From the NCBI GenBank assembly GCA_008632985.1, contig QPGO01000001.1:1-64000 (forward strand): 64,000 nt of DNA, given 5' to 3'. Shown here in pieces: positions 3,197-58,657 of the stretch. Below the pieces are notes generated by a model that saw only the letters and a list, made by a program, of their open reading frames with translations, was not told the DNA's origin and ran no database searches. A program made the translations under genes and the position numbers. Numbering within the stretch: position 1 is the stretch's first letter; each line of letters opens with the position of its first letter. Source of the DNA: Psammoneis japonica. Its lineage: Eukaryota.

Positions 3197-3299
3197 TTTT
3201 GTGTGTTAGTCTTTTCAATTGAGAACTAGATGCATTTACAATGCCTCCAGTTCCATTTGAGATGTGCATCTGGCTTTTAGAGGCACATGCTGGGAAGCC

Positions 3300-4190
3300 A
3301 TTTTGCTTCATTTTTCCTTGAGCAACTTCCACAAGAAGCTCGAAAATGCCCAACCTGGCCTGATTGCGAAACTTCTGCGTGCAGCCAAGATGGAAGACTG
3401 CAATGGATCTCCAACTCCTGCCCTTCCCATCTCTGTTGGCAGTGACACAGAAGGCCCACCATTCGATGAACCTTGTGACTGCCGATCTGTGGTTGGCATG
3501 TTGATGCATCCAGTGCCCAACAGCTGTCTGGACATCATCTGCACTGCCCATCAATTTGCTTGGTTCTCCTGTGCTCCAAAAGCCTCCCATGCCATTGCTG
3601 TCCAATGCATTCTTTGACACTTGAAGGACACGACTGACAAAGGGCTCATCCCAGCCCCAACCATGGATCAACGACTTGATTGTCATGTTGATGCCAATTT
3701 TGTGGGTCTCTTCCATGTTGAGGATGATCAGGTTCCTGCTTCTGTTAAGTCTCGCACAGGATGTCCAAGCTGCAGCGGCCCCTCATGGTTTTGTCTCTGC
3801 TGTTGGAGGCAGAGAATGTTTCTCTCCCAATCAATGCATGGCCTCATTCCCCTTTGTGAGATCTTGAAGGAAATCAATGCACATGCTTTTGGTCAGCTGG
3901 ACAGGAAGAATGGCATCACCACACATGCCAAGGCTTTCCAACCCACCAACGATGGAACCAATTCACCCCCCATTGCCTCTGCCAGCATCAGCTTGCTCAC
4001 ACGCCAAAACTGTCCCCACAAACCAAGCACACCATCGTGCCTTGTCACCAGTTTTGTGCTGAAGTTGAGGCTTTGGAGATCAAGATTGAGCCTGTCAGCT
4101 CTGCTGCACAGCTTGCTGACCAGTTTGCTGGGGGTTTGACTGCTGCTGATCTGTTCTGCACTTGTTGTGGGGCCCTCATGGGCTGGCGAC
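3300..4190 (+). mobile_element. Ty1/Copia RT-RNase H remnant
   Basis: QPGLIAKLL...DCN...TP, CRSVVGMLMH (consensus YRSVVGMLMY), CHVDANF (YVDADF), SVKSRTG and QLADQF..GL motifs; stops and frameshifts. Confidence 0.9.
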
Positions 4191-5308
4191 TGTTTGTCCT
4201 GCTTCTCTTGATTTTGCAGGCAGGCTGGGAGAAAATGAGTCAATTTGCTGCTGTTCTGTTGCTTTCCCCAAACAACAATGGCAAGTCTGCCACCCGTGGC
4301 AGAATGTGCAATCAAGGAATTGCTGCGGCAACATGAAGAAAACGCAGCAAGCCACCAAGGAAGAAGAGTGTCCGTCAACGGCTGTTTTGGAGGTCCTGCT
4401 TCACTTGAGCTGCACCAATGTAAAAGTGATGCAGGCTTCACACTTTTTCATCTTGCAGTCTTCTTTGCAAACATCCTTTTGAAATGCCTGGCACCACGTG
4501 CAAAGCTTTTGGGTCCATCAGGAATGAACCGCTCTCACAGCTCTTTTTGTGCTCGATCGACGACAATGGGGCGAACAACCCAAGGTCCAAATTGTCATGG
4601 GTCTTTTTGGCAAATGCAAATGACTGTGCACCGGAGTGGAGTGGCTTTCCATGAGACAACAAACGCCAACGTTGGAAAACAAGGGTGGGTCTTTTTTCAA
4701 CAATGGCAGACTTGACAACATGCATTGATTGACCAAGGTGGCAAAACACGCCACGTGTGCACCAACAACAGCATCATCATTTCTGCTCGACAACAACAGG
4801 GGATGATTTCGATTGGTGTTGTTGGTTTGGTTGTTGATGTTGAAGTGAAGTGCGGCATTGGCGGCCTCTCTTTTTGGCACGCACCGGCCGGCTGGCACGC
4901 ACCGGTGTGACTGCACCTATGTGGGTGACAGACGGACGGACCAACCGGATGGCCACATAGTACGCCCGCCTAAAACCAACATGCGTGCAGCGCAACGCTT
5001 GAACCGCACGATCGTTCATCGCGGGAATAAGCATGCAAGCAGTTGGAAGTTGAAGTTATTGGTTATTGTTCTGTTGTTCTTCTGTTATCCCATTGCTTCA
5101 TTTAATTCGTTCCTGCCCTTGTCTCACGGGCAAGCGTCGCTGTTCTACAGCATAATCGATCTCGCCTTGTTGCCATTGTGTTGGTGCCTGTCTCCTTTGC
5201 AGTTGCGTTTCTGCTGAGCAGAGGAACCACCTCTTGTCTCGCGTCTCACCGATCCGGACTCCGCAATTTTGATTCTGCATCTCGCAGAAAGACACAAAAA
5301 CAGCAGAC

Positions 5309-8300: not shown

Positions 8301-10036
8301 AATTACGGAACTACCAACACAAGATCCCGCGTCGCCACCGTCGACTCCGGGTCCAACGACTCTCAATCCAACATCGTTGCCGACGACAAACCCCACTCCT
8401 CGTCCAACTCTCAATCCAACACCTCGTCCTACACTCAATCCAACGCCTCGTCCAACTCTCAATCCAACCCCACGCCCCACTCCATCACCAGCTCCAACAA
8501 CACCCAATCCCACCAGTGGTGGTGGCAGCAGTAGTTTGCCGCCAAACGGTCCATGGAATCCCGTTGGACAAACTTTGCACGGCAAGGCTGCAGAAGATCG
8601 TTTTGGCGATTCCGTGTCCTTGTCTCGTGATGGCAGTGTCATGGCTGTCGGAGCGGATCAAGATTTGTCTTCTTCCAATCCCGGCTATGTTGTTGTGCAA
8701 CGATACAATCCAAACACCCAACAATGGGAACAAATTGGCCAAGAATTGATTGGACAAGCCGGCGGTGACGGTTTTGGAGAGTCTGTTTCGTTAAATGGCG
8801 ACGGCACAATTCTTGCAGTTGGAGCGGATGCAAATGACAGTGGCGGATTGAATGCCGGTCATGTTCGTGTGTTTGAATACAACTCGGCATTGGATCGTTG
8901 GGTCCAACTCGGCAGTGACATTCTTGGACAAGACGCTGGTGGTCGATTTGGTTTTTCCGTGTCGCTCTCGGACGCGGGAGACATTCTTGCCGTGGGAGCG
9001 TTATACGATTACACGGAAAATGGCTCTGATTCTGGATCGGTTCGATTGTTTCAATACGACCGCGGCTCCTCATCCTGGAACCAACTCGGACAAACACTCA
9101 TTGGCCAAGCTGCTAATGATGAATTTGGTATTTCCGTGTCCTTGAATGCGCAGGGAACCATTGTCGGCGTTGGAGCAAATTACAATGATTCGGGTGGAAA
9201 CAATGCGGGTCAAGTGTCGGTGTTTGAATACAATTCTGCCTCATCCAGATGGGATTTGTTGGGCAATCCAATCAATGGCCAAGTCGTTGAAGGGCGGTTT
9301 GGATTTTCGGTTTCTCTTGACGACAGCGGTTTGATCATGGCCGCGGGTGCACCTGGAAGCTACGACGAGACGGTTTTGGTTTATTCATACGACCGCTCGA
9401 CTTTGACGTGGAGTCAACGTGGCCAAACTCTATTGACACAACAGCGTGGCGATTTTTTTGGATGGTCCGTGTTCGGGTGGAAACAATGCGGGTCAAGTGT
9501 CGGTGTTTGAATACATTTCTGCCTCATCAAAATGGGATCTGTTGGGTGATCCAATCAATGGCCAAGTCGTTGATGGTTGGTTTGGATGGTCGGTTTCTCT
9601 TGACGACAGCGGTTTGATCGTGGCCGCGGGTACACCTGGAAGCTACGACGAGACGGTTTTGGTTTATTCATACGACCGCTCGACTTTGACGTGGAGTCAA
9701 CGTGGCCAAACTCTATTGACACAACAGCGTGGCGATTTTTTTGGATGGTCCGTGTCATTGAGTGGCAATGGAAATGTCTTGGCTGTTGGAAGCAATCGGC
9801 ATGACGTCAATGGATTGATCAATGCGGGTCAAGTTCGAATCTTTCAGCACGACAGCAATGCAGACGAATGGAAACAAGTTGGAAACCCTTTAAATGGTGA
9901 GGCTGAAGACAATGGTTTTGGAGGATCCATTTCATTGTCGTCCGACGGAAGCATCGTTGGAGTTGGTGCACATTTTGCTGATGTCAATGGCGGCGCATCC
10001 GGATCCGCGTACGCATTCACGGTAAATGACAATTAG
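5309..10036 (+). CDS. Receptor-like protein kinase: N-terminal MLKL-like helical bundle, Ser/Thr/TKL kinase, single TM helix, Pro/Thr stalk, FG-GAP beta-propeller
   Basis: ORFs 5309-5836, 5866-9510 and 9446-10036 join via frameshifts at ~5828 (A run) and ~9471 (283-bp duplication). Kinase motifs GAGTFG, VAIK, HRDLKPEN, DFG, APE are intact. TM FIIPGVVLLAIAAIVSIVVAV at ~7660-7722. Repeats of FG.SVSL..DG..LAVGA. Confidence 0.85.
7079..7186 (+). repeat. 54-bp in-frame tandem repeat (DLRVQKEQSASSRRKKRP x2)
   Basis: Two near-identical copies read directly from the sequence. Confidence 0.95.
8350..8510 (+). repeat. 24-bp coding repeats (PTLNPTPR) of the Pro/Thr stalk
   Basis: Repeated ccaactctcaatccaac units. 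Confidence 0.9.
9189..9754 (+). repeat. 283-bp tandem duplication within the FG-GAP region
   Basis: 9189-9471 and 9472-9754 both start ttcgggtggaaacaatgcggg and end gatggtccgtg; several substitutions between copies. Confidence 0.95.
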
Positions 10037-38345: not shown

Positions 38346-41300
38346 CAGTTCACAGATCAGAGCGCAGCAGCTGGGGCATGGTGCAGCCTCTGAGAGGCAC
38401 AAGAAGGGGCAACAGCAGACCACCAACAGCAATCTTTTTTGAGCCAGAGAGTTGCCAGTGCATGGCAGCCCACCAAAGCATTGTTCTCACTGTGGTTTGT
38501 TGGGCCTGCTGCATCTTCTTGGCTGCTGCTCTTTTTCATGCACAAAGTTGTTGGCAGTGGCTGCCACAAGAATGTTTTGAAAAGATCTTTTGCTCCTGGT
38601 GGCTCTCTTTTTGTGCAACTTGCCCTTGCTTTGGCTCCATTTTGTTCTTTCTTTGCTGCCGTGCCACCAACATTTTTTGCAAAAAAAGTGGGCTCTGCTG
38701 GCACTGTTGAAGCAGCGCTTGAGCACCTGGGTGGGACAAGCCATGACACTCTGCAGATGATGCTAGATGGAGATTGTGGCAAAACCTTTGCTTTTCACTG
38801 CACATTCTGGTCCAGTCACAACTTCTTGGTTCTGGGAACAGTCAGCCTGTTCAAGCCCCAGGTGATGTGCAACCCATCATGTTGGTTCAATTCTCGGTGC
38901 TCAGTTTTTAAACTCCTTCAAATTTGATTGTTTCGAAAATTGAAAGGTGAGTGCACACAAAAACAATGGTTTTATGTACACTCACCCTTCGATTTTGCAA
39001 AAAATTGAAATTGAAGGAGTTTAACATGCCAAATGCAAAAATGGGCCAGTGATGGGAATCGAGCCCTTGCACATCACCTGGAGCTGGAACAGGCCAGTCC
39101 CAGAACAAGTCTCATGTGTGTCTGAGAGTGTCTTGAAATGGAAGGCATTGAACATTGATGTGAGGCGTCATGCCAATGTTCAGCTGACAGCACCATTGTG
39201 TTGATCCCATTGCTGTGCAAACTGCACATTTGAATGCCTTGCTCTTCTTTTGTAACATCATTTGATGTCACACATGTGCGCGCACAATTAAATTGTGAGT
39301 TGCATCTTCAATGTGTGCGTGTGCTTTCTGTCTGTGTGTGTGCCTGAAGTGTGGCCATTGCACCCCCTCTTCTTGGCTTTGATCAGGTGCATGTGCTCAT
39401 CTTGAACAGTGTGTGCACATGCACACAGTTGGCGCCAGTTTCCGCACACACTTGTTTCTCTGTGGGTGTTTGTGCCACAGGTGGTGCAATTTCAGCATCA
39501 GTTTTTTTGAAGTTTTTTGTCGTTTCTTTGTGTTGGATGCACAAGGTGACATTTGTTTCATTGTTTGGCAAGCGTGTGTGGTGCATTGCTCTCTTTTGCC
39601 CTGTGAACCCAGCGGGCGACGAAAAAGCAGACATGTTGGCCCCTCCCTCAATCGTCGCACAAAAACAAAAACAAACCAGGCCTGCTGGGAGCATTGGCCA
39701 CTTGTCTTTCTTTGTGGGTGTGGGTGTGTGCCATTGCATGCTGCACTAAATTGCCTGCACGCACCGGTGCGTAGGGCCCTGCCGCCGGGGCTGGCATTGT
39801 GGTGGTGGCAGCAGAGTGGCATGGCCACCGCACCGGTGACGCGGATGACCATTAAATTTGATGTCTCGTGCCATTTTTGGGGCTGCAGAGAGGTGCGCGG
39901 ACACTCTTTTTTTTCCAATTTATTGCCATGATGGCGCATCGCACAAACCAAGTTGTTGTTCAATGTGTTTTCCCCAATGTGACTGTTTTGTGTGGAATTC
40001 ACGGCAAATTGTCTTTGTTTGTAACTGAGTGCATTTTTCAACATGCCACACCGGCAATCCCAATTTTTCAGAACTTTCAAGCTCTCCTGAAAAACCGTGC
40101 CACGCACCTGTCATGGGGAATTCATCAATTTTTTAGGATGTCCCCATGACCTCTCATGTCCTCAATGATCATTCTGCAAATCCAAAGAATTCATCTGCAC
40201 TGAACAACCCATCCCGTTCCAAAATCCGAGGGACACACTTTCAAATTCGGACGGACTGCCCGACTGCCCGACTGCCCAACTGCCGGACTGACACGAAAAA
40301 GTCTGCAATTGCCAACCACTGAGTGGTCAGTGAAACGTTTTTTTGTTTTCGTGACACGCGAGATGGCCTTGTCGTTGAGCAAAAAGAAAAACACCCCTTT
40401 CATGCATTTCTGTGCCAAACCACGCATGTGCTGAGCCACGTGCAAACAACACAGGGTTGAGTCAAATGCCCAACGAACAAAATGGGCAAGACACACAATG
40501 GCGCATCCGAACCCATTTTATGATGGCAACTGACAATCAATCATGACACGAGTCAATGCAGTCGACAATGTTGATTGAATTTGATCTACAGCACAAAAGA
40601 CAAAATGAAATGTGGTGGCTTGTGTGCAGGATGCTAGAGTGCAACAAATCGGTTGTCATGAAAAGTGCCATTTTTGTGTCGTGTCATCACAAATGCAAAT
40701 CACAAGGTGACCAGATTGATGGCTGAGGCAAAATTAGAACCTTGTGTGGCCAATGAAAACACGATGGATTGAACAGTCATGTTTGTTCCTCCCTTCAACC
40801 CATCTTGTGGGCAGAACACAGCGGATCATTGCATCATGCTTTGTGCTGCATGGTCACAAACACAAGCCATGAGGCATCTAAAGTGAAGGCTGAGGCCACA
40901 GCTGAACCACACACAACTGATGTTAATGTGGAGAATTTAATTGACAAGTTCACTCCTCCTTCTTTCTGCTGCAAGGGCCGCATCGCGTCGATGTGTCAAT
41001 GCATGTCATGGTCCATCGCCCGCAGTGCATTTGCACGTGGCAAAACATGCAGCTGCGTTTTTGTGAGCATTTTGTTTCCACAAAAACGTGGTGTCGTTTT
41101 TGTTCACAAGCACTTGTGAACAAAAACGAAAGTCTTAGTCAAGCGAGTCAAAGTGCAGTCAAATGGGTCAAATGCGTTTTTGTTTTTGCTTGCGGAAAGT
41201 GCTTTTGTCAAAATTGTGAGCTGGTTTGGCTGCATAAAAATGGAATCGTGTGAATGGGGAAACATGGGAATTTTGGCACTCTTCATTTTGATCGCATCAA

Positions 41301-43219
41301 ATCGATCGTGCATTTGCATGCTGATTGTGCAGACCTGTCACGTGTTGTCTCCACGTGGCGCCTTCATGTGGCATCGCACTTCAATCGTGGGCCAGATGAC
41401 TGACGCGCGTGCTGCACGGGTGCTTGCTTGGCATCCTCTGAAATTGCAAGAGCCACGTCCTCCTGGAAGACGCTGAAATTGTGCACGAAACGTGCCAGGA
41501 CAGACGTTGAATTTTTGCACAATGTGCGCATCCCCAACCCGCGCTGAGGGGTCATAAAATGTCCCCAACGGCGTTTTTGTCAAAAATCCAGAATCCTGAT
41601 TCTGTCGCCTTCAGAGACATGAAATGCACCCTCAGAGGGTGAGCAATGAAACCATGGGTGGCACGCAAACAAGCGCCTCTGTTGGCCTTGTGACGTCTCT
41701 GCAACACATCACAACCTTGCCACAATGCTGCATCACAACATGGCCATTTTTTTTTATCCGGAAGCAGTTGAATTCTTGCAACAGTTCACTGCAACGATGA
41801 CATGAAACTGACAATCACCTTAGCCAGCAAGTTGTTGGGCATGCTGTGTCACACAAAGCATTGTTGGTGAAGTTGTCAATGGTCACACACAACACTGTTT
41901 GTGCTGTGTGGCAATGCATTGTGTTGTGCAGTGATGTGCTGCAAAATGTAAAGTCACAGCACACATTGCATTGTCACCAAATGTTTTGTCACTCAGCAAA
42001 ATGTAACAAGCAGAAGTGGCTGTGTGTGTCACTGTGCATTGTGTTTCAAAATCTGTTGCAACATCCACTTTCAGCATCAACAAGAGTGACCATGCTAGAG
42101 AGTGAAGCATGCATGTTCCCTTTGTTGCCAAACCAATTCCAGCATCTCATTGGCACTGTCAACATGCTGTGCCAAAAACTCTTCTGATTCCTGAATGAAC
42201 AGTTCCGTTGATTGCGCATGCTGCTGCTGCCACTGCTGCCACTTGTCACACAATTGCAGCAATTAGACCTGTCACCACTGCCACTGCTGCCTCTCAATGC
42301 CATTCACCGTTCCAGGGATTCGGACTGCTCCTGCTGAGTTGGGTGGATTGTTGACTCCATTGGCAACGCGACAAACAAGCCCGGCACTCACTTGACACAC
42401 TTGGCGACAAGAGCAACCTGGCAGACTTGAATTCTTTGAGACTTTCAGGAAATGATGGGTTGTGCCCTTGTCAATCTGTTGAGAACAAACCGAAAACACA
42501 ACGCAAGCGTGAGAAACAAGTGGTGAGAATCAAGCAGATGGTGCAGAACGCGGTTTTGTCCATTCTTCCACTTTTTCGCACCTCTCTTTTCATGGATGCA
42601 TTTGTTGCAGCAAACAGTGATGCATTCTTTGCTGATGTGATTGTCAGGAAGCGTGTGGGCGCCACAATCGAGCGCCGCCTGTCGATGTTGTCATGGTCGA
42701 TTTGTTGTGATCACAGTGTGTTTGGCGTTCGCAGCGCGGGAAAATGTTGTTTTTGCTGTTTTTGGATCAGCCAGCTACACATGCAATGTCAACAGCACAA
42801 TGTGCACAATGCAACAATTGTCGCAAAAAAATGCGTTGCATGAGGGTGCACATTGTGTCCCCTGCTCAGTTTTGGCGATCAATTTGGACAAAAAAGCTTT
42901 AGCTTTGACAAGCTTGCAGGGCATCGAAATGCATTCGCACCACATTTTGCGACAATGGCCTGTTTTAGAAGGAAAGCTTCTGTTTTGTCATGTTTGGACA
43001 AGTTTTGTGTCAAATCATTCTGACATCTTAATTCGTGACTGAAAAGTGAGGGTGCATTTTATGACCCCTCAAGTCATGGGTTGGGGATGTGCATGCACTC
43101 AGCAATCATTGACAACACAAACACACATTTTTCTTCATGTGTCAGCAGAAAACAATTCGCCAACCGAGCTCATTTCAATCACCAACCCTGCTCATTTTGA
43201 TCACCAACAATTGGCGATG

Positions 43220-43370
43220 GAAATGAGCAAATGTGAGCAAATGTGAGCAAACATGAGCAAACATGAGCAAACGTGTGCAAATGTGAGCAAATGTGAGCAA
43301 ACATGAGCAAACATGAGCAAACATGAGCAAATGTGAGCAAATGTGAGAAATGTGAGCAAATGTGAGCAAT
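43220..43370 (+). repeat. 10-bp minisatellite (aaaTGtgagc / aaaCAtgagc); second cluster at ~43627-43700
   Basis: Units read directly from the sequence. Confidence 0.95.
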
Positions 43371-46300
43371 TTCAGCACACGATCGAAAAAGTGATCAACC
43401 ACGGGGAGTTGATCGTTCCACGCTGCATGCGAAAAAAGCTGCCGGATTTCCACTGATGCACTCGTCAGTTATTGCTTGTCCGTTGTTTGTGCTCAAGCTG
43501 GCACCTCTGTGCAAAATTTCTGGCTCTCTTCTTTGTTTGGCATCGTCGTGTGAAGGAAATCCAAGACTTTTGTGTTTTTCCTTTTTCCCACGAGAAAAGC
43601 AGTTGACAATTCAAATGAACATGTTTGAGCAAATGTGAGCAAGTTGAGCAAATGTGAGCTGACATGAGCAAACATGAGCAAACATGAGCAAAAATGTGAG
43701 AAAATTCGAGCACAATTGGCAATGATTTGAGCACAATTGGCGATGACATCAGCAGAAGTGGCGATGACATTTAAATGAATGTTGTCATTTTTACAAAAGT
43801 CTGTTAAAAACTTAAAATGCCTGTGGGAACACATTGTGAATTCCACAGCATCTGTCCTGGCACGTTGCGCGTGTGAGTGCGGCGTTTTCCTGTGGTCGTG
43901 CTTCCTCAGGTGCGCACCAGCAGTGCTGCGCTGCTGCGTGCCAGGGGCTGTGCACGGTCTCGCCATGTTGTCCAGTGCCACGCAGGCACACTGCACTTTT
44001 CTGCTTTGTGTTTTGCTTTTTGTTTCTTTTGGCATGTGTGCCACCAATTTGTGGAGAGAGGGTGGACTCTGCAGCTGGTTTCTTTTGTTTTTGTTGGGTG
44101 TGCTCCTTGTGCTCCATTGGGTCTGCATTGTCATTGGTTTTCTGTTTTCATTCTGACATGTCTGTTCATTTTTCTTTCAGGACCCACAGATTGATTGCCA
44201 CCTTTTGCTGGAATTTCCATGGAAGCGCGAATTCCCAGGAATTGCTGCAATTGCCACTTTGTCACACATGCACTTCACACATGAACAAAAGTTTGTGCAT
44301 TGGCAATTCCCTGTGCTTCCCATCTCATGCATTTCTGCATCTTCTGCATGCCAGGATGAGCTGAGCCAGACAATCGACCGGACTCAGCAAGATGTGCAAC
44401 ACACCATGGCATGTTTGCACCCCATTTGTGGCAGCTTTTGTTGATCGATCATGATGCCGTTCCATGCATTTGATGACATTGACTGAATGGGATCTGCATC
44501 ATAAAACACAAGATGAAATGTGGTTGCTCATGTGCAGCAGAACACTGGTGCAATTGAGCCATCAGTCATCAGTTGTTCTTTTGTCATGCTGTCACAAGTG
44601 CAAGCCACAAGGCATGCAGCAGAGGCCAAGGCAAAAGCAGAACCATGCATGGCCAATGATGACAATGAGGTGGATTGAATGGTTGCCCTCATTCCTCCAA
44701 TTGACACATTTCATCTGCAGAATGAAGTGGATTGTTCAAATCATGCTTTTGTTGTGCAGCCACAAATGCAAGCCATGCGGCATCTGGAGTGAAGGACAAG
44801 GCAAAATTAGAGCCACATGTGGCTGACAAAAATGTGGCAGATTGATTGATTGTGTTTTTCTTCCCTTTGATCCATCTCATGTGCAGAACACAGCCGCATC
44901 ATTTTTTCCTTCTTGTGTCATGTGGTCACAAATGCAAACCACAACAGTTCTAGAGCAAAGGCCAAGGCAAAAACAGAGACAAACACATGCAACATCAATG
45001 TGCAAAAACAGAGACAAACACATGCAATGTCAATGTGCAAGATTTGGTGGTCAAGTTTGTCGCTCCCTTGCTCCACCACAAGGGCCACTTCATGTTGATT
45101 TGTCAATGCATCCATCATGGTCATTGCTCAGCAGGGCTTTGCTGGCTGGGCTGGAGGAAAATGGGCACCCACCCATGCCAAACAAATGGGAATTGCTGCA
45201 ATGCACCTGTTTTTTGTTCCCCTCCCCAAGCCCTTTCAGTTGTTTCTTCTCCTGCTGAATCACCCTCATTTCCTGGGTGTTCCCTAAAAGGGCAAGGCAG
45301 TCCCCTTGCCCTTGCCATTTTGGGGAATCCCCAAATGGGCAAAACCAAACTGAGCTCCACACTTTGATGGTGTGCCAAAGAAACACTGTGACTTGCACTG
45401 GATGGGCACTGTGATGTGTGCTGAGATCTTTTTTTGTTTTTGTTTTGCTTTTGTTGCTGTTTCTTTGTTTTTGTGTTTTTGGATTTCAGTGGTTTTGCGG
45501 GCTCTGCAACATGTGCTGACCTGAAATGTTTCTTTAGCAGGCATTTTTTAATGCACACCAGCACGAAATGGGCGCTGCAACTTGCACTTGGTTGGGCACC
45601 CCAACATGTGCTGGCTCTGGTTTTGTTGTTTTGACACTGTTCTTTTTGTCATTTTTTGTTTTGTTTTTGCATGTTTGTCTGCAACTGTGGTGTGTGCTAA
45701 ACTGCACTGGTTCTGATGATGAGATGCAGCTTTGTCTGTGGCATGTGGCATGTGAGAATGGAGCTTTTGCTTGGTTTTCTGGCTTTCTTTCTTTTTTCTT
45801 GACAGGAGTTTTATCTTTTTCATTGGTGCTTGTCAATGTTGGTTGAGTTGGAATTGAGAAACAACAAAGGGGGTGGGACAAGCTTGGCATTGGCCAAGGC
45901 GGAGGCTGGCTTGAACCAAACTTTCTCAAGGATTGTTTTTTGTGTCCTTTTTTCTTTCCTGAGGGGTGTTTGGGCCAAGTTTGAAGTTGAATGGTCTGAG
46001 AATCAAAATGCTGGGGTTGGTCAGGTCAACCAGGTCTGACCAGGTGACACACTTGCTGTTTTGGTCTAGCTCTTTTTGTGGCGCAAATTCTCTTCCTTGG
46101 TTGGAGCATTCCAGGACTCCTTTGGGTGCGCTGTTGTGCATTTGTGCCACTCAATTCTCAGCAGCTTTTGTCAAAAGAAAGGGAGGAGTCCTTGGAGCAT
46201 TGGGCGAGGAAATCAACACAGCATTTTCAGTGTGTTTTGCAGTTGGCTGTGTCCTGCAGCTGGTGCTTGCTTCCAGATTTGCTTGGATGAGCTGAGTTGT

Positions 46301-46459
46301 GGGTGGAGGGCATCAGTGTTGCTTTGCACATGAAATGAAGAAAAGTTTGTCTGTGGATTCTTCAATTTCTTTGAGTGGGTTGAGGTTTGATTGTGTCAGG
46401 GGTGATTTTCATTGGACCTGGGGTGTGGTTTGTTGCTTGGCTTGTTGCTCTTGGCTTGC

Positions 46460-47082
46460 AGCTCTTGCTTGGCTCACTGCTCTTCTGGGTTGATCTTTGT
46501 TGAAGTGTTTGCTGTCCAATTTGGTGGTGGAGAGAATTTGTTGTTTGTGGAGGTGTTGGCAGCAAATGGATCAGGTCATGCAGTTTCTTCTGAGCTGGCT
46601 GTGGGTTTGCTGTTTGTGTTGCTGAGCCACAGATGGTTGTGTGAGTCCACTCTGATTGTGGGACAGGTGCATGATTTTGGTTTGGGCACCAGCAATCAAT
46701 TGAGCCAATGGGAGTGCATGATTGGATGGATGGGGGACGGGGGTGGAGATTGACTCCTTTGTGTTGTCTTGTTGCTCTTGCTTGGCTCACTGCTCTTCTT
46801 GGGTTGATTTGTTGAAGTGTTTGCTGTCCAGTTTGGTGGCAGAGAGGAATTTGTTGTTTGTGGAGGTGTTGGCAGCAAATGGCTCAGGTTGTGCAGTTTC
46901 TTCTGAGCTGGCTGTGGGTTTGCTTTTGTGTTGTTGAGCCACAGACGGTTGTGTGAGTCTGCTCTGATTGTGGGACGGGTTCATGATTTTAGTTTGGGCA
47001 TCAGCAATCAATTGAGCCAACGGGAGTGCATGATTGGATGGATGGGGGACAGGGGTGGAGATTGACTCCTTTGTGTTGTCTT
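46460..47082. repeat. ~315-bp tandem duplication
   Basis: ctcttgcttggctcactgctcttc...gattgactcctttgtgttgtct occurs twice in succession. Confidence 0.85.
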
Positions 47083-47149
47083 GGTGCTGCTTGGGTTTTT
47101 GAATGTGCAGAGGAGGCAAGAACTGTGTGGCTGGTGCTTTTGACTGTGA

Positions 47150-48800
47150 CAAATGGCGTCCATGGCTGCTGCACTCTAAATTTTTGACTTTGCCTGATTT
47201 TTGGTTGCTTTGCTTTTGGATGTGTGCAGCACTGATGTCACCTGGTTTGCACAGTGGATGGGTGTTTGACCGGCACCATTCACTTGTTCTTGGTGGGTGG
47301 TGTGGTGGTCATCATTGAGGATGCAGATGATTTGCAGGCTCAGTTGGCAGTTTTTGTCAAGGTTGTTGAGGTGCTGTTGAATGTTGAGTGCCTTGTTGCT
47401 TGTGTTGCTCCACAGTTTGTTCAGCATTTCCAGCTGGGTGTCCATTGGAAACTCAAAGACTGAGCCAAAGGCAGTGCAGCTGTGGGCAATGTTGGTGCCA
47501 TCAATGGGTGCTGCGTTCCATGCTTTGGGAAGCCTTGGTGGTTCCCTTTTGAGAGTGGGATCCATTCCATGTGGAGTGCATCACACATTGCTTCAAAGAT
47601 GCCCATCTGAGTCCTGTGCAAAAGAGCACCTGTTCCAGCAGAAGTTTTGAAATGGAGGCAGCTGACATTTTTGTGATCTCTGTTGTGATCATGCTGCCAG
47701 TCATGTCACACATGGCGGTGAGATGCCTTTGGCATTTTTGAACAAGAGTGTTTTGTTGGCTGCCCAGACATCTGGGAGGGTGAACTTCCATGGTTTGTTG
47801 GCTGCTGAGCCAAAAAGCATGTTAGAAGTTTGAGCTCTGATGGAGTTTGATGGGATGCATTCTGGGCAGGCCTTGATGGAGGTGGAGACAAAGGATGACA
47901 TTTTTGGCCAGAAGAAAAAATTCATTCTCAGCAGGGTGAGTGTTGCCTTTTGTCCCATGTGTCCAGTGCTTGGAGTTGCATGGCAAGCTTTGAACACCAT
48001 GCATCTTGTTTTTCTGGTGCAATGATGAGGAGGAGCTTGCAAGATCCTGAGCAGATGGGTTTTTTGATGACAAGATGGTTGTTTTTGCATTTGATGAGAT
48101 GGTCTCTGTTGAGACCTCTGTGTGCTGGGTTGACCTGGAGCAGCTCATTTTTTGTCTGCTTGTGATCTTTGTTGAGCACAAGGGTTTTCCAGATGGTGTG
48201 TGTGTTGTGATCATTGGAGTGCAGGCTGGAGGGAGAAGAGTGAGGAATGAGAGAGTGAGCACAATTGCAGAGTTGACAAATGCAACCTTGAAGGAAGAGA
48301 GCCAAGCAGGAGGCTGCAGCAGGACCAAATTTGGAGCGGCAGGGAACAGGGGCAAGGACAAGGGCCTTGAAGAGCAGCAAAAGCTTCCAGAAAGGTGCAG
48401 AATCATGTTGCCATGGAGGAGTGAGATGATCAGGGTCAGCGAAGGGGGTTGGGAAGTGGCAAGGCTCCACCGAAAAATGTGGCGAAGAGTGGAGCAGAGA
48501 TCCTTGCAAGCAGAAGAAGAAAGCTTGCAGTGAGAGGAGGCTCAAAAAGGCAGAGGCGTGGGTGTGAAGGAGTGGAGCCACTGAAGGGAAGAGTGCCATT
48601 TGCTGATGTCGTGAAGGGAGGAAGCAATGATGTCAGGGTTGAGAGCAGAGCGAGGAGCGAAGTGCTTGTTTTGCAAGTGGTTGTGATGATGCATAGAAGA
48701 GAGGCAGTCATGTTGGCTGTGATTGCAATGTCTGCAGACATGCAAAAAGTGGCATTGAAGAATTCAGCATGTGCTTGAGACAAAGAGAGACGTGGATGCT
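47150..48800 (-). mobile_element. Ty3/Gypsy pol remnant (integrase)
   Basis: HATPSTGHMG..ATL..LR..FFWPKM...V...IKACPEC matches the Gypsy integrase H2C2 zinc-binding domain. Confidence 0.85.
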
Positions 48801-49410: not shown

Positions 49411-50385
49411 TTAATTGTCCTCAATCTTCGGCCATATGCTATCGAAATCAACAACCCAGTCAGCAGTTGGTAGGCCAACTTCGACCAAAAGTTTGCATTT
49501 CGTCCATATCTCGTCCACCTCGACAACATTGTCGTCTAGACAAAGCGCCGCAACGGAAAAATGTAGCCCAGTATGTGATGATAACATCGAACGAGCGTTC
49601 TGTCGCGTTTGAATATCGTTCAAGCTGATCCCCGAAAGAAGCATAATTGAAGCCACGAGACATGTTAAATCATACCGAAGTGAGGCCTCTGTCCCGCAGT
49701 CCATTCCAAAAGCAGGCGAGGTGGCTGTCAACATGTCTCCGTATGCTGTACACGATCCAAAGTCTATGGTAACCACCGTCCGGTTTCCTGCCTGGAACAT
49801 CATATTCGAGGGTTTGATATCGCCATGACACATTTCTTTGTTGGAAAATGCCTTAATGGTAGCAAGGCCACATAGCGCCACATTCAGAATTGTGGCTTCG
49901 TTCACACTTGCGTGCGATACAGGAATGGGATAGAAAGGGCACACCATCGCAACTCGATTCTCGTCGATTCGTATGCTGTCAAAGACTGGCATTACAGACG
50001 GGCACTGCTGTTTCTTGTGAATCAGCTGGGACGTCTTCACCTCGGTCTCTATTGTTGCTGTGTCTCCAATTTTGGCGCAGTATAGATCGGAACCTCGAAT
50101 AACATACTGTAGCACGGTCTTTTGTTGGCCGAATGCCATGGGCACCAATCCGTCGAAAATATAGTCAGAGACGAGTTTGGACCTTGTCGCGGTTTTTACC
50201 ATTCGCTGGATTTTGATGTAGAGAGAACTGATGTCGCGATCCTTCATTTTGTCATTCATGATCAATACAGCCTGTGAAGAGAACGTCGTCAGTAAGCACG
50301 ATGCTTCCGAGTCGGTCAATTCTTTCTTCACAACACGCTCCATTTCCTCTGTGGGATCCTTAGCTGCTGTGGCTGACATATTCAA
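49411..50385 (-). CDS. Small intronless atypical protein kinase
   Basis: Intact 324-aa ORF with CAK, HGDIKPSN and IDFGS; no clear Gly-rich loop or APE; normal TA and Tyr content. Confidence 0.8.
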   Translation of the reverse strand: MNMSATAAKDPTEEMERVVKKELTDSEASCLLTTFSSQAVLIMNDKMKDRDISSLYIKIQRMVKTATRSKLVSDYIFDGLVPMAFGQQKTVLQYVIRGSDLYCAKIGDTATIETEVKTSQLIHKKQQCPSVMPVFDSIRIDENRVAMVCPFYPIPVSHASVNEATILNVALCGLATIKAFSNKEMCHGDIKPSNMMFQAGNRTVVTIDFGSCTAYGDMLTATSPAFGMDCGTEASLRYDLTCLVASIMLLSGISLNDIQTRQNARSMLSSHTGLHFSVAALCLDDNVVEVDEIWTKCKLLVEVGLPTADWVVDFDSIWPKIEDN

Positions 50386-50566
50386 AGTTGTTTTATTTGC
50401 GTAGTTGTACTCGTTAGTTGTTTAGCTTGTTTCGTGCCTTGTCGGATCTGGTGGTTGTCGTCGATGTTCATGTTATCTTGCTTGTTGGCCATCGTCCATC
50501 GCACGGTATGTAGACGGTAGAAGTACTGGTAGTATCGTGTAGATTAGAGGACGCCTGTTGTGTTTC

Positions 50567-50777
50567 GCAAGGAAATTCGCAGTGGCGGTCTGTCTGTACG
50601 ATGGTTTCTACGCAAATTTTGTACTTTCGTCCGTCCCTACCACCTCCCGCCCGCGCCGAACCGCCCGACGACGACTCCTCCAATTATTGTCTCGACGGAG
50701 GTGGCAGGGACGGACGAAAGTACAAAACATGCGTAGAAACTATCGTACAGACAGACCGCCGCTGCGAATTTCCTTGC
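50567..50777. repeat. Inverted repeat with 81-bp arms and 49-bp spacer
   Basis: 50567-50647 is the reverse complement of 50697-50777 with a few mismatches. Confidence 0.93.
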
Positions 50778-50851
50778 ATGTAATGTGGCGACACCCAAAA
50801 TCTCGCAGTGTCGTGAAGGTTTGCACAACCACTGTTTTTTTTGAAGTCCAC

Positions 50852-53800
50852 TGCGACAACTCTCTCGTCTGAGAGCTGGGAGAGGTCGACGGAAGGTTGA
50901 GCAGATGATCGCATCGATGGCAGTGGGCTGACGACGATGGCAGAATCGGCAAAGCTGCCAATGTCTTGTTGCACTGGATGTTGTGATTGTGAGCAGAAAA
51001 AGGGGACAAGTTCTCCAAAAGAAGGGCGGGAAACCGCACGCGCAAGTGAAGAGCGCGCGAGTCGCGCATGAGTTCGCACTGTGTTGGAGCTCCCTCTCGA
51101 ACGAAGAAGCTGCCAGCCGCAAAGCAACTTGCAAATGGACTCAAATTTGACAGTGACGAGTCCTTTTGTTAGAATGTCAGCGTGTTGCAGGTCTGCTGCA
51201 ATCTTGGATGCAGCAACTCGATTTGGTTTGAGCTGCGAACGAAACCAGCGACACTTGATTGCGCAGTGCTTGGACCTTGGCGCAATTCGGCCAGGTTCCA
51301 TGTTAGCTGGAGTCAAGGCTCCAGCATTGTCCTCCCACATGGTGGTCCTGATGGTCTTGGTGGTCCCCAGACCAACTCCAGTGCCTTGGGAAATGGCTTG
51401 TGCGGTGCGAAGAAAGGGAAGGACAGTTTTCATGCATGTGGAGAGAGCGCTGCACTCTGCTTCCATGGTTGAGAGTGCGATCTCGGGTGCAAGCTTGCCA
51501 GACCAGATGACAGGACAGTTTGAAATGCAAGTGACAAATCCTGTTCAGCTCTTGACGCAAGCCGGGTCTTGCTTGTCTTCATGAGGCCACAATCCAGCAA
51601 AATCTGAGTCCACAAAAACGTCGATGTTGAAGTCCCCAGATGGCTTGAGGATTGAACCTTCCTCCAGTGTGCCCTCCAGGTGTTGGCCGATCTTTTCGAG
51701 GGCTTGTTCATGCAAGCAGCATGGACTGTGAACAAATCTTGCGGCAGAGCCAACTGCACAGGTGATGTCGGGCCTTGAATGGCCTTGGAGATGCTGGAGC
51801 ATGCCAACAACACTGGCACAATTAAAGGCTCCATTTGGTGGGTCTCCATCGGTGTCCTTGACCAACGGAGTCAACAGTGTGGGTGTTTGGGCCTTTGGCA
51901 GATGGCTTGCATTGAGGGCTTCGATGACACGCTTGGCCAGGCCACTCTGAGTGAGCTTGACAGTGCTGTTGTTGCTGTCACGATGGATGTGGACGCCTGA
52001 AAAACCTGCGACGGAATCCTCGACTTCGATGGCCAGACCACCATCAATTTTGAGTTTTTCGATCACTTCGTTGATGTGCTCTTGCTTTGGTGAAAAGAAC
52101 AGTGTGTCGTCAACACACACAAGGCAGATGACCTCATCAGACACAAAGAGACACGGATCAACATCATCTTGAGATTGAAATCCGGCATCTTCTAGTTTTG
52201 ATTTGAGGTGCAGGAAAAAGTTGTGCGGTCCTTGTTTGAGACCATGCACGGTCTTCTTGAGTCAAAGTGCTTTGCCGGGCTCAGTGCATCCGCGAGGCAT
52301 TTGTGTGAACATGCCAGAGCGTTCCCACTCTTCGGGTGTCATGGCACCCCATTTTGGATCTTTGTCAATCGGAGCATGCACGAAAGCCGCAACACAATCA
52401 ACTTGTTTCATGGAGAGCTCAAGAATTTGCAAAAGCATGAGCATCAACCGCACTGTTGTCCAATTGACAACCGGAGCAAAGGTGTCAAAACAATCAACAC
52501 CTTCCAATTGCTTGTTGCTGCGGACACAGAATCGGGCTTTGTGTTTTTGGATTGACCCATCAGGGCATCATTTGCATTTGAAGGCCCAAGTGGATGGCAG
52601 GACATTCATCCAATCTTGGTGGTCGACTTCCTCCCAAGCATCTTTGCCGTTGACAAGGGAGTCAATTTTGACATCACAAGCTTTGAGACAGGCTGCGCGA
52701 TCGGGTCCACTCACAGCTTCTTCCCAAGTGGGGTTGTCGGCAGAATTGGCGCCAGCTGCCAGAGCCAGAGGATGCATTTCTTCAAGTGTGCCGTGGACTT
52801 GATCAGTGTTTTTGTGGAAGAGGTTGATCATTGCATGCAAGTCTTTTGATCGGAGTGCATTTGCAATGCTGTCCCATTTTGGGGCCATCAGAAACTGCTT
52901 GTTGAGCGTCTCTGATTTGACCATTCATTTGGGATTCTTGCAGGCTGTCGGCAACTTGTTTGGAGGAATGCGAATGTCAGCCATCATGGCTTCAACAAGG
53001 CGGTCCGGTTTCTTGATGGTGCGGCCGCTGCGAGTCCGAGCAGGCAGAGCAGCAGGTTGAGGAGTGGCATTCGGAGCTGTTGGTGTGAGCTCAGCCACGT
53101 CTGAACCAAGATCCAGGTCTTCAGGCAAGTCATGATGATTGACAAGAGACAAATCGTCGTCGCTGTTGTCACCAAACTCATCAATTTCGACTCCCTCTGG
53201 AGCCTCTGAAGAAACAGATGCTAGATCATCCAATGATTCAGGATCAGCAGGAAGCTCTCCCTCTGGAGATGTTGCGGAAGAGGTTGGAGAAAGAGGAGGG
53301 TTGCCAGATGAGGCGCAGTCTGACGATGGTTCTCACGGTGGTGGCGCTCTTCGGGCATCAGCCAATCGTCATGCAGTGCGGGGAGGTGATGGCGAGGGTC
53401 CTCGGAAGGCTTGAGCATGGTTGACTGCTGAGTCAGTTGCAAGCAGGGATTCCCAAAGGTCTGCGGAGAAAGGGACGTCCTGAAAGCACCCCCCCCAGAG
53501 TCGCTGTTGGGTGCAGTTGAAAAGTGGTTGTCGTAGACCACATGGTGCTGAGGGCTGACACAGCCAGTCACGAGGTTGAGGATCAGGCCAATGTTTGTAG
53601 AATGAGCCGGGGAGATGCCAAGGTGTTGGCCGCGGCAGCTGCGTGGGTCCCACTTCGGAACTTTCTTGCCATCCTGTAGTTTGGGATCTAAAACATGCGC
53701 GGGACAGCCCCGCACTTGCAAGTGCTGTAAATGCGTGCAGAAATCAAAGTGTTGCTTGGAGCAGATCTCAACAGGAGCAGTTCGAGTGTCGATTTTGGGA

Positions 53801-56800
53801 AGGTGATTCCACAAATGGGCAGAGTGAGTCATGGCAAACGGCCAAAGTTCCAGATTGGCGGCATCAGGCCACATGAGGACGGCATGGAGCAACACAGATC
53901 TTGCCCATGAGGCAACAGTTTGGATGGAGCATTTGGCGATGCCATTTTGATGATGGGCACCAACACCAGAGAAGTCTGTCATCTGGTGGTTTTCTTCAAG
54001 ATCTTGCATGAAGGCCTCAGAGCCGAAAGGGATGTCATCAGCAAGGTGTTGCTTGACCTGGACCCCAAATTGGTCACCAAGCTGCTCAAAGGCATGCTTG
54101 GCACGAACAGTTTCACCTGCAGTGAGACCAACTTGATGGGTCAGGAACACGCAGCTAGAAGCGTGATCGACAAAAATCGTGCCGCCACTGCACTTGTCTT
54201 TCTTGGGTTCGTGCCCCTTGGTTGACGGAAGACGTCCAGGGACGCAGCTGATGCACTGGTCGACGGAGACACGTTGACCTGGAGACAAATTGCCCTCTCA
54301 CAACACCATGGGCGGAGGATTGGATGCACTGCAGCGGGCTGGAGTGCACCGCTTTTGTTTCGCCAGTTGACAGGCGGCACACAATGGCGGTGCACAACCG
54401 ACCACCGCATTGGATTTGGGTTGAAGGACTTGGGATTTTGCAGGATCCCTTGGCACAGCACTGAGACGTTGCATGTGCTGGAAGCTGGCGTGACTGAGTT
54501 TTTGATGAAGCAGAGAAGCTCCTTTTGACCTGGAGTGAGGTTCTGATTTGTCTGTGAAGTGACTGACAAGAAGGCATCTAGTCGGTCGGCTGTGCTGATC
54601 GGAGCCAAATTGCATTTTGAAACTCCAGCGGATGTTGGTGTGGACATCATCATAAAAGGTAAGTTGCTGTCCTTGTTGTGCGGGAACTCAAGGGTGTCCC
54701 CACCTGGGAGCGTTGGGGTGGCTTTGTCACCATGCACTGAACATTCACCTTGATTTCCATTTTCTTGAAAACAGGATTGCAGGCTAAAAAGGTGGATGGA
54801 GGCGTCAGGAACGTAACAAGCCTTGGTGCGAACAGTGCGCACAACGTTCCAACAGTCGATTGTGCCCCATTTGACGACGTAACCTTGACCCACAACACGA
54901 GTGGTTGAGGACAATCCGTTGATCGTGGTGAGTTCTGCAGGTTCAAGAGGGCCTGTGAAGTCACTCAAGTGCGGAGTGAGAGAGGAAGAGGCGCCGGCGT
55001 CAAGTGCCACGGGCGCATCAACAGGCAAGGCTGACAACAGAGCTTGACATTGCGAGCTGTCAAGATGTTGTAAATCGGCTAACGACTTGATTGGTTTCTG
55101 GCAAGGATGCATCAGTTGGAGACGGTCCAGAAGTCGAGGTTTGGTGGGAGAACATGGCTGCGCCACCAAAACCAGTCGAGCAGGTTGCTGCTGTTGTTTG
55201 GGACAGATTGGTTGCTGTGCAGGAGAGTGCAGGTGCTTCTCCGCAAGCTCGGAGCACATCCAATGAGGCAAGTGCTTTTGTCATGTGAAATTGTGCAAGA
55301 GGGTCGACACCTCGCACGAACTCATCCAAAGAGATGCCGAGCTGCATGTTGCACACAATCCAGGATTGGTGTGGCAGTCGGTGTCTGATGCGGGCAAACT
55401 CTTCGAGCTCGTGTGCTTTGGGGTCTTCCGCTGGTGCAAAATTGGAGGGTGCTGAATCAGCAGGTTTGAATTCAGCAGACTTGGTCTGCAGGCAATCGTC
55501 TGGCGGATCTGACAACATGACAAAATCAGTTGGCGTTGCACCGCATGGCAAGTCGCACATCTCAGAGGGCAGATGCAGCAGGCGATGCTTGATTTGTGCA
55601 CAAGCTTTGTTGGCTTCTTGAATGGGATCAATGCAGGCAAACCTGGGCTTCTTGGGTTTCAGAGGCTTGACTCGACGCCTTGGTTTTAAGAGTTTCCAGG
55701 ACTTGGATCGGCGACACTGCCTGAAATTGGTTTCTTCAACAGCAGCATCGTCCGGCATGGGTGCTTGACGGTTGCAGTGCCAAGTCGTTGGATGAAGGAA
55801 GGAACGAGGAGGGTCTCTTTGTGGGATTCGAGCTGGACAACGGTCCAAACAACGAACTTTTGCGTGATGAAACAATTTGTGGCGCATCCGATGAAGATGA
55901 GGATGATGATGTGGGACATGTTCCAATGACGAGGTGACAATGAACCAAGGCATGTCATCACATGAGAGCGAAGGATTCTTGGAAAAGAGCAGCAAGCAGA
56001 AAAACAATCCACCTGCTGACACAAAAAGAAACTGCAAAACAGCAGAAACAGCTGCGTCTCCTCCCTCTCCAAGAATCTGGAGAGCAAACCATAAGAGGAG
56101 GGACTGCACTGCAGTCACACAAGCCTGGATGTCCCTTCCAGGACAAGGAGTTTTGCTGAACAGCGAAAAGGGGTGGGCCAAACACTCAAAGAAAGAGGCG
56201 CGCCTGGAACTTCAGGTGAAGGAAGCGAAGAGACCAGTGATGGTCTTGGCAACCTCATGCTTGGCGTTCGCCACAGCCACTTCACGGTCAGGGTTCAGAG
56301 TGGAAGCAGGGGCTGGAGTGGGTGCAGGAGCAGGCACTGGAGGTGCGGGAGGCGCGGTGGCAGCACCAGCGACCTGAGCAACAGGGCGCCAGTGCTTGGT
56401 CTTGTAATGATGGCAGTGATCTTTACCATCAATGTGGCGGTGACTGTTGTTGTTCTTTTCGGCATCAGTCGGTGGTTGCCATTTCTCAGGAATGGTCTTG
56501 GTGGGCTCACCATCCTTCTCAGAGGAAGCAGTGGTCTTGTTCTGAGCCCGTTTTGCGTCGAAAAACAGTTTCTTGTTGGCTCGCACGCGAGCATCGTTGA
56601 CGGGTTTCTTGCAGTCAGATGGAGGATGAGGGCCACCACAATTGAAGCAGGTGACCACTCCGGCAACAAAGGAGGTGGCATTCTTCTTAGCAGTCACGCC
56701 GGACCACTGGTCGAAAGACACAAGGGCCAGACAGTGAGCCTCAGCAAATTTGAGGAGATCAGCCACAGATGTGGTGCTGATGGTTGGACCACTGGACTTG

Positions 56801-58278
56801 AGCTTGGAGATTTGTGAGTCCTTGGCAAGGTGGTCAAATGGAGAGTTAAATTCTGGCACGCTGGAGGTCTGAAACACCTTGGCAAGATTTTCCATGAAAT
56901 CAGAAGGAATGACTGATTTGCCTTTCTGATCCTGGAGGTTCTGAAGTCGAGCACATCCACCATGGATGAGGGAGACGACTTTGCTGACGTCTTCACCATC
57001 AAAGTCAGTGATCTTGAGAGAGGTTGTGTCAGCAACCAAGTGACGAGCAGCCTCTTCAGAGTTGCTCTGAAGAAATTTCATCATGAGCGAGAAAAACAGA
57101 GGTCCGCCTTGTTCTTCTTGCAGATGCTTGAGACATGTCTCATTGACTTTCTTCTGGAGGGCACATGAAGCGTTTCTCTCAAAACAGTTGCAGGTGAGAA
57201 GAAGATTTTGGCTGGCCAAGGTCCCATCGGGGTCCTCGAGCATGGCAGAGTGCCACTTGTTGCTCTTCGCGACTTCAGCTTCGGTGATCGTTGAATGCTC
57301 GGTGCAGAGATCACGGGTCTTGAAGGTGTCAGGATTGACAATTTGGAAAACGTCGTCCATGTCGCACTTGGCGTGGTTCGACTGCATGGTCGAGATGGAC
57401 ATGGCCAGATCACAAGTGTCTTTGAGCTCATCTGGATCGTTGATGTTGAAGTTAAGGAGGTCAAAGCGAGTCTGCTGTTTCGCAGTTGCACGCTGGAACA
57501 AGTCACCAAGCTTGTCCGGATCTAATTTGTTCCTCTGCTGTTCAGTGCAGAGAGCAGCAAGAGCATCCTTGGACGTTTTGGGAGTTGTGCGGACTTTAAC
57601 TTTCCTTCCATTTGTCTCCACCTTGGTGGTCATGATGCTGGCAGGCGGAGTTGGCGCACGCGGAGGAGTTGGCAGACTTGGAGGCTGTTGAGGTGCGCTC
57701 GCATCAGGGCTTGACATGCGAGTCACTGAAGGAAACGGAGGTTCTTCGGATGGCGGTCAGTTGTTTGACCATTGTCAGTCTGAATGTGAACTCTTTGTTC
57801 AGCAATGCGAATGACAGCAGCCTGACGGTCTCGAAGGGTGACTGTGCGACAAAAGTTTCGAACTTCGTTCGTCATCACAACACGGTCTCCGACACGAAAA
57901 TCAGCGATGGTCAGTTCTCTGTTGACAACAGGTCGAGCGGATCCGGCTCTGACTCTGTCACAGTTCTGTCATTCGTGTTTGGCAGCAATGCGACGAACCA
58001 AGTCGGCTTCTTGCAGTTGAAGTGATTGCAGTTGTGCAATGAGATCGTCAAGTGTCTCAGAACTTCGATTGGACATCGACGTTCCGCACGTGGAATTGCA
58101 CGTGAAAATGTGTGGAGCTCAATTCTCGTCCACCGGAGAGAAAAGAGATGAGGCACAGGAGTCGTCAAGCGTGATGCTTGGGCTCCCAACCTGCGACAAC
58201 TCTCATCTGAGAGTCAGGAGAGGTCGATGGAAGGTCGAGTGGATGATCGCATCGACAGCAGCAGGCTGACGACGATGG
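50852..58278 (-). mobile_element. Near full-length decayed Ty1/Copia LTR retrotransposon (CoDi-like)
   Basis: gag 56212-57726 with CFNCGGPH knuckle; protease LDAGAS; integrase VSVDQ, FVDHAS, HHQNGIA; RT HGLKQ and CVDD; RNase H. PPT gagagggag at ~51090-51098. LTR homology 50852-50940 vs 58192-58278 (5' LTR truncated). PBS-like ggttgggagccc next to the 5' LTR. Confidence 0.95.
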
Positions 58279-58657
58279 TGGTAATAAAAATAATTATCAT
58301 CAGTCTGTCCATCCGTCCGTATACGAATATAAACTTCTTGGGAAATCAATTGAAATATGCTATCTGATTGACGGTGTTTTGATTCACATGGTGAAGGCCA
58401 ATGCCGTCAACCAGATAGCCCTAGCATTTCAATTCAGTTCCCGAAAAGTTATTAGCTCTAATCACTCTCTCGTATGACATTGTGTACATTTCTACACGAT
58501 TTTGTGTTTTTTCTCTATGTAAAATATTAATTATGACCCACGCGACATTTTCGAATGATTCCTATTGCGACGGACGGAGTGCAACAGCTGTTAATTTGTG
58601 TTAGTACACCTCATAGCTCTTCCGCCGTTCACATCTATATTGTAAAGTACCTTGATT

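Follow-up and report, generated by a model that had tools for sequence, protein, structure and literature searches.

In the genome of the diatom Psammoneis japonica, a retrotransposon has lost nearly all of its TA dinucleotides since it was inserted, and the best explanation as a whole, to which we assign a probability of roughly 0.6, is a mutator that acts on TpA in chromosomal DNA after insertion. The element lies in the first 64,000 nucleotides of contig QPGO01000001.1 (assembly GCA_008632985.1, 91 Mb; this whole stretch, G000:C2:1-64000, is hereafter the window), where it occupies positions 50852-58281 and, judged by its sequence, is a dead Copia-type element on the minus strand, bounded by long terminal repeats (LTRs). 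Its interior has an observed-to-expected ratio (o/e) of TA of 0.07, compared with 0.58-0.61 in the neighbouring genes. The direction of the change (TA to TG or CA), its timing after insertion, its symmetry between the strands, its dependence on flanking DNA and its context preference were all observed, and leave us in very little doubt.

The two LTRs of the element (the 3' LTR at 50852-51089, ~236 bp, and a remnant of the 5' LTR at 58192-58281, both on the minus strand) align over 87 columns with 12 base differences and one 2-bp indel. An earlier reading of the letters alone (the first-pass annotation) had described ~88 alignable bp with no TA in either LTR, several surviving CpGs and four sites reading TG in one LTR and CA in the other, and all of this was reproduced: TA is absent from both copies (0 versus 11.5 expected from composition on the left, 0 versus 4.0 in the right remnant), six CpGs are common to both, and the four sites lie at 50877-8 (TG; CA at 58215-6), 50902-3 (CA; TG at 58240-1), 50918-9 (TG; CA at 58256-7) and 50924-5 (TG; CA at 58262-3). 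A fifth such site, just past that annotation's limit, reads CA at 50941-2 and TG at 58279-80, so that the discordant sites span 50877-50942 of the left LTR. The annotation was right about these sites but incomplete, as it missed three differences in which CG faces TG or CA (50866-7/58204-5, 50890-1/58228-9 and 50898-9/58236-7); a slower CpG decay has therefore acted after insertion as well, in parallel with the TA change. One further transition separates the LTRs (50876/58214), and TG-type as well as CA-type changes are found in either LTR. The pair is ~14% divergent, yet with a single exception its 12 base differences all belong to the TA and CpG classes, meaning that in this genome dating by LTR divergence fails. 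As a sample the pair is small, and it is the sister copies that carry the case.

The two LTRs of a new insertion derive from the same templates and thus start out identical, such that any inequality in TA between sister LTRs must have arisen after integration. Six sister pairs with matching 5-bp target-site duplications (TSDs) were found, a set that leaves out the pairs C27 and C340, whose TSDs do not match, and C237, which is not a pair. Their LTRs differ by TA against TG or CA at 39 sites, by TG against CA at 8, by CG against TG or CA at 16 and by CG against TA at 1; the remaining differences are 8 other transitions and 5 transversions. In pair C22, one LTR holds 14 TA and the other 1, the only other differences being 4 CpG changes, and in pair C95 the counts are 16 and 5. 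The two classes can be far apart within a single LTR, e.g., L017, which lost 13 of 14 TA and kept 17 of 19 CpG. These unequal, TSD-verified pairs support the first-pass proposal that mutation followed integration.

To read the original state of the discordant sites we turned to the LTR family (28 loci, 26 with a matching LTR, reduced to 22 copies after L011 and L015, which are duplicates, and L020 and L027, which are partial or divergent, were left out). At the four sites originally described, the 20 other copies yield 80 cells: 22 TA, 24 CA, 20 TG, 0 CG and 14 other, of which 10 reflect a subfamily difference at one site. Since CG does not occur there, a CG origin, which the annotation had considered formally possible, fails, and its preferred reading, an ancestral TA resolved independently in each LTR, is supported. 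Relatives show TA at 10 positions of the remnant, and in the window pair 5 of these are discordant, 4 are concordantly TG or CA and 1 is CG in both LTRs; 5 discordant of 9 fits the expectation of independent resolution. True CpG columns behave differently, being mostly CG, with TG or CA.

The protein-coding remains settle the direction, from TA to TG or CA. At the catalytic tyrosine of the reverse transcriptase (RT), 3 of 8 copies have cysteine and 5 of 8 histidine, while an outside relative has tyrosine. Opposite the tyrosines of this relative (58 cells), we found tyrosine 0 times, histidine 21, cysteine 11, arginine 1 and other residues 25, whereas phenylalanine is kept in 83 of 145 cells of the same comparison. 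A metagenome search found 2 relatives. One related Copia-type element from a metagenome (L039, 3501-6500) is broken and CpG-poor (o/e 0.38) yet has a normal TA content (0.63) and keeps the RT tyrosine, indicating that TA loss is not intrinsic to this type of element.

The inference from the window pair presupposes that its LTRs belong to one insertion. They are mutual nearest neighbours among the 22 copies (5 differences outside the TA and CpG classes, versus at least 8 to any other), share three characters present in 0 of the 20 other copies, and flank a single collinear interior, with a primer-binding-like motif and a purine tract placed as in the sister copies. The TSD of this pair is not checkable because the outer part of the right LTR is deleted; a common origin, which the annotation had assumed and which these findings favour over separate insertions, would accordingly rest on the three private characters rather than on a TSD, and falls short of proof.

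We next consider which strand is altered and in what context. The converted LTR of C22 shows events in the order CCGCGCCGGCGCC, with no runs; G-type and C-type events interleave within single LTRs, and same-strand runs were looked for among LTR events without any being found (test for fewer runs, P 0.93 and 0.86). Larger counts come from a short multi-copy repeat that abuts the truncated right LTR (58281-58567, at least 40 copies), for which 39 other copies were taken from 40 listed matches. The tally covers 22 TA-poor copies and, of 287 positions, the 255 at which the window copy is matched by at least five of six TA-rich ones. The 374 TA cells of the tally read TG 167 times, CA 167, TA 25, CG 8 and other 7, and of 344 changed TA adenines, 337 underwent a transition. 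Equal numbers of TG and CA with next to no CG imply a single hit per site, on one strand or the other; mutation 'on both strands', as the annotation had it, is thus correct in that either strand serves as target, but not in the sense of both being struck at one site (CG products ~2%). CpG cells changed in 31 of 149 cases versus 342 of 374 for TA cells, and C:G pairs outside CpG are nearly unaltered.

A changed adenine is followed by a 3' pyrimidine in 31 of 39 events, compared with 29 of 74 unchanged strand-sites, and a pyrimidine-TA-purine context accounts for 130 of the 270 TAs that survive in element interiors, versus 54 of 479 in genes. Sorted by 5' neighbour, A to G changes occupy 337 of 727 cells after T, 44 of 1115 after A, 6 of 566 after C and 1 of 734 after G; the minor AA to AG class is spread over 20 of 52 sites and may in part be shared by descent. 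A per-site table of products by context from eight interiors was set aside, as those copies are just 70-86% alike and some of their surviving TAs are possibly new.

Conversion depends on place. The interiors of all 8 element copies examined are nearly completely converted (23-52 TA in 5.8-7.3 kb), even where their LTRs keep 11-17 TA. In five copies with TA-rich flanks, summed TA per 100 bp from the outer 3' edge inward runs 36, 25, 19, 8, 3, 2 (in bins that differ in their number of available sites), and LTRs flanked by TA-poor DNA have 0-2 TA left. The same holds outside the element family: TA content tracks that of the flanks in 39 copies of the short repeat (Spearman 0.72, p 2e-7) and in 13 copies of a short hairpin repeat (Spearman 0.61, p 0.03). 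Chromosomal location thus outweighs element family in deciding conversion. The short repeat has an internal hairpin, and its copies hold anywhere between 0 and 8.7 TA per 100 bp depending on the flank, making it a useful reporter of mutated domains; the hairpin repeat (50567-50798, ~40 loci), in the left flank of the element, has mostly kept its TA, and its 81-bp inverted arms are 94% complementary, 2 of their 5 differences being TA/TG and 1 CG/TG.

In the explanation we favour, the Copia element would have inserted with identical, TA-containing LTRs and then sat in a chromosomal domain that is silent and rich in repeats, and in which a host process would turn A:T into G:C at the TpA of double-stranded genomic DNA. 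Each TA step would be struck a single time, on one strand or the other, and become fixed as TG or CA; as either product destroys the target, CG would be rare. The rate would be high within the domain and drop over the last 300-400 bp toward genic DNA, and given time the LTRs would saturate too, as in the window copy. Regarding the chemistry, we lean, if not strongly, toward a zinc deaminase, TadA/ADAT-like or of another kind, that would be recruited to silent chromatin and there convert adenine to hypoxanthine, which replication reads as G; the process may also serve as transposon defence. More speculatively, and with the odds rather against it, diatoms might possess a naturally occurring adenine editor of DNA, guided by chromatin (5' T >> A > C > G, 3' pyrimidine), that saturates silent domains, stops a few hundred bases before genes, is homologous to the Bigelowiella activity discussed below, and is an old genome defence of the stramenopile-alveolate-rhizarian (SAR) lineage.

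Several points weigh against this explanation. The copies are related by descent, so that cells and counts are not independent events. The window copy itself breaks the edge-sparing rule, as both of its LTRs are wholly converted beside TA-rich flanks, the last TA on the left being 70 bp beyond the LTR. Probably this is because the copy is older, a view supported solely by its 39 private transversions versus 15 and 6 in its two closest relatives; on the right, unconverted DNA may have come to lie next to the remnant through the deletion. A deaminase search of the genome returned 9 matches, which by motif we take to be dCMP-, guanine-, riboflavin-type and tRNA-editing deaminases, and singled out no candidate as the mutator. 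TadA/ADAT2-like genes are present (L099, L102), but any eukaryote needs them for tRNA editing, and they are hence no evidence for a mutator. Furthermore, an adenine lesion in TAY and a thymine lesion in RTA of the opposite strand (Y, pyrimidine; R, purine) are inseparable by sequence, and the AA to AG class fits the WA motif (W, A or T) of polymerase eta-type enzymes.

This last point introduces the strongest competitor, which shares the timing and place of the mutator but has an error-prone polymerase of the eta type, working in repair patches (e.g., after deamination of cytosine or 5-methylcytosine), misinsert G opposite T at WA motifs. The order of 5' neighbours and the co-occurrence of CpG decay speak for it, as does the finding, in the available part of PMC6423074, that POLH produces WA hotspots at template TW. 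The same source places a quarter of in vitro POLH errors at C/G, whereas here the changes at TA adenines are nearly pure transitions and C:G pairs outside CpG are barely affected; moreover, TA exceeds AA more than 10-fold despite saturation, L017 lost its TA while keeping its CpG, and same-strand runs are absent. We consider the polymerase improbable. Slightly less probable still is oxidation of the thymine of RTA in repeats, to 5-hydroxymethyl- or 5-formyluracil, with mispairing to G. It would leave the same outcome as an adenine lesion, and 5-formyluracil does mispair. Consistent with such a lesion, 5-hydroxymethyluracil marks dinoflagellate transposons, according to the accessible portion of PMC11572971. 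Against it, a search of this genome for TET/JBP had no match, although control genomes were likewise without a match in the same search.

By analogy with CpG decay, a modified adenine (e.g., N6-methyladenine at TA in silent DNA, written by a methyltransferase) might deaminate or miscode, which would account for both the domain dependence and the near-pure transitions; as eukaryotic N6-methyladenine occurs mainly at ApT and in active genes, we hold this to be unlikely. Editing of element RNA or cDNA before integration by an ADAR/APOBEC-like activity has very little left in its favour. Several copies do have interiors far more converted than their LTRs, as a transcript-linked process might yield, and the order of 5' neighbours resembles what we take to be the ADAR preference. 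The TSD-verified pairs C22 and C95 nevertheless largely refute it; in addition, both change types occur inside one LTR, instead of a one-strand polarity or the same changes in both LTRs, the short repeat shows exact TG:CA symmetry and flank dependence, and tyrosine codons yield histidine as well as cysteine. The first-pass argument against ADAR/APOBEC editing is accordingly sound for the RNA or cDNA stage, but does not cover an ADAR/ADAT/TadA-like enzyme working on chromosomal DNA. Finally, a reversed path from CG through TG or CA to some TA, resembling repeat-induced point mutation (RIP), or an origin of the LTRs from different insertions, can draw on the reality of CpG decay here and on the unmatched or uncheckable TSDs (C27, C340 and the window pair), but is practically eliminated by several findings: none of the 20 other copies has CG at any of the four sites, CpG is best retained in TA-rich LTRs, the position of the RT catalytic tyrosine lacks the arginine that a CG origin predicts, and the window pair shares its three private characters; the family site states and tyrosine positions refute it unless the assembly misses most family copies.

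The closest known system to the chromosomal TpA mutator proposed here is described in a 2026 preprint on the rhizarian alga Bigelowiella natans (bioRxiv 10.64898/2026.01.13.699255), the available parts of which report TpA to TpG/CpA hypermutation of integrated DNA of nucleocytoplasmic large DNA viruses (NCLDV) as well as virophages in mutation-accumulation lines, with a ~1000-fold raised rate per generation in some lines only, propose but do not demonstrate an ADAT2-like deaminase, and remark on TpA-poor transposon domains. As far as those parts go, the two systems share A to G and T to C transitions at TpA with both products, action on integrated nuclear DNA (compare the unequal LTRs of C22 and C95), and the targeting of foreign, repeated or silent DNA while genes are spared. 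They differ in host and target, a diatom (stramenopile) with retrotransposons and short repeats versus a rhizarian with viral DNA, and in extent, with near saturation here (o/e 0.07) versus 0.45 in the Bigelowiella NCLDV region. Flank dependence with spared edges, the 3' pyrimidine preference and the minor AA to AG class (44/1115) are features of the diatom, the preprint text available describing TpA only; and its rate is per generation, whereas ours is a relative excess (in C22, 13 of 14 TA changed with zero differences outside TA and CpG). A literature search, mostly without subscription papers, found no report of TpA hypermutation in diatoms. TpA mutation, known from one preprint on a rhizarian alga, is thus extended to a diatom, and on transposons after insertion, where it opposes the usual AT-ward mutation bias. 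Should a DNA adenine deaminase be responsible, nature would have its own equivalent of engineered adenine base editors, and candidates could be tested against its context fingerprint.

RIP in ascomycete fungi makes C to T transitions that create TA from CA/TG, and is triggered by a homologous copy. RIP and the process described here alike are associated with repeats, target dinucleotides specifically, mutate genomic DNA by transitions and destroy the reading frames of transposons; however, TA is lost here, contrary to the defining direction of RIP, and for copies of one short repeat it is the flanks, not the presence of a homologue, that decide conversion, though the TA-rich copies in TA-rich flanks may be under a length threshold. 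CpG decay of methylated transposons accounts for three differences in the window pair and 16 in the six sister pairs, but is much slower here and cannot account for sites that read TA in sister copies. In Phaeodactylum, the available part of PMC9998398 reports that DNMT5a methylates transposons.

The remaining anatomy of the element, all on the minus strand, is as follows. A polypurine-tract-like purine run adjoins the 3' LTR (51090-51098; same in sister copies, function suggested by position), overlapped by a stop-free stretch at the position of the pol RNase H (51075-51544; no Pfam match, putatively identified by gene order). An RT fragment (51545-52261; RVT_2, E 4e-8, above cut-off) has 0 tyrosines in 239 codons and cysteine at the position of the catalytic-motif tyrosine; upstream of it in the element, an integrase-region fragment (53221-54297) contains a retroviral SH3-like domain (E 5e-6, slightly below the curated cut-off). 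An open stretch at the gag position (56212-57756; 514 aa, 1 tyrosine) has no Pfam match, and a putative primer-binding-site-like motif (58178-58191) is kept next to the 5' LTR of sister copies. With ~90 bp left of a family length of ~236 bp, the right LTR has lost its outer ~150 bp together with the TSD, and joins directly to the short repeat, whose own left end is shorter than in sister copies and whose TA is kept (o/e 0.81); most simply, this junction is a deletion. The family resembles the Ty1/copia CoDi elements of diatoms, as far as the accessible text of PMC2806351 describes them, in its RVT_2 domain, an integrase before the RT, TG...CA LTR ends, 5-bp TSDs (in sister copies) and a diatom host; it differs in that all 8 copies examined here are broken and tyrosine-depleted.

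A gene neighbouring the element has a diatom protein as its best named match (69% identity). When the window is divided into 200-bp bins, roughly two thirds of them contain two TA steps or fewer, and TA o/e is 0.03-0.17 in TA-poor blocks versus ~0.5-0.65 in genic stretches. Short-read contigs (run X1) differ from the TA-poor element interior by 0-5 letters per matched stretch, showing that the TA-poor sequence is no assembly artefact; this run may be the assembly's own sample, and hence gives no independent biological support. Two pairs of identical loci, each on two contigs (L014/L015 on G000:C237 and C113; L097/L098 on C41 and C317), suggest haplotype duplicates in the assembly.

Other decayed mobile DNA in the window (3200-4700 and 12200-49200) forms big TA-poor blocks with internal duplications 85-98% alike, and at 44000-48000 CpG is nearly gone as well (o/e 0.10-0.13). 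A TA-free block holds 10-bp tandem arrays and ~167-bp repeats (43204-43724 and 40671-44977), whose units differ for the most part through TG/CA exchange. An intact kinase-like open reading frame (49411-50421, minus strand; Pkinase E 1e-5, below cut-off) with normal TA content sits between two converted domains. At 9189-9754, a kinase gene containing beta-propeller-like repeats ends in a 283-bp tandem duplication (95%), where its reading frame shifts.

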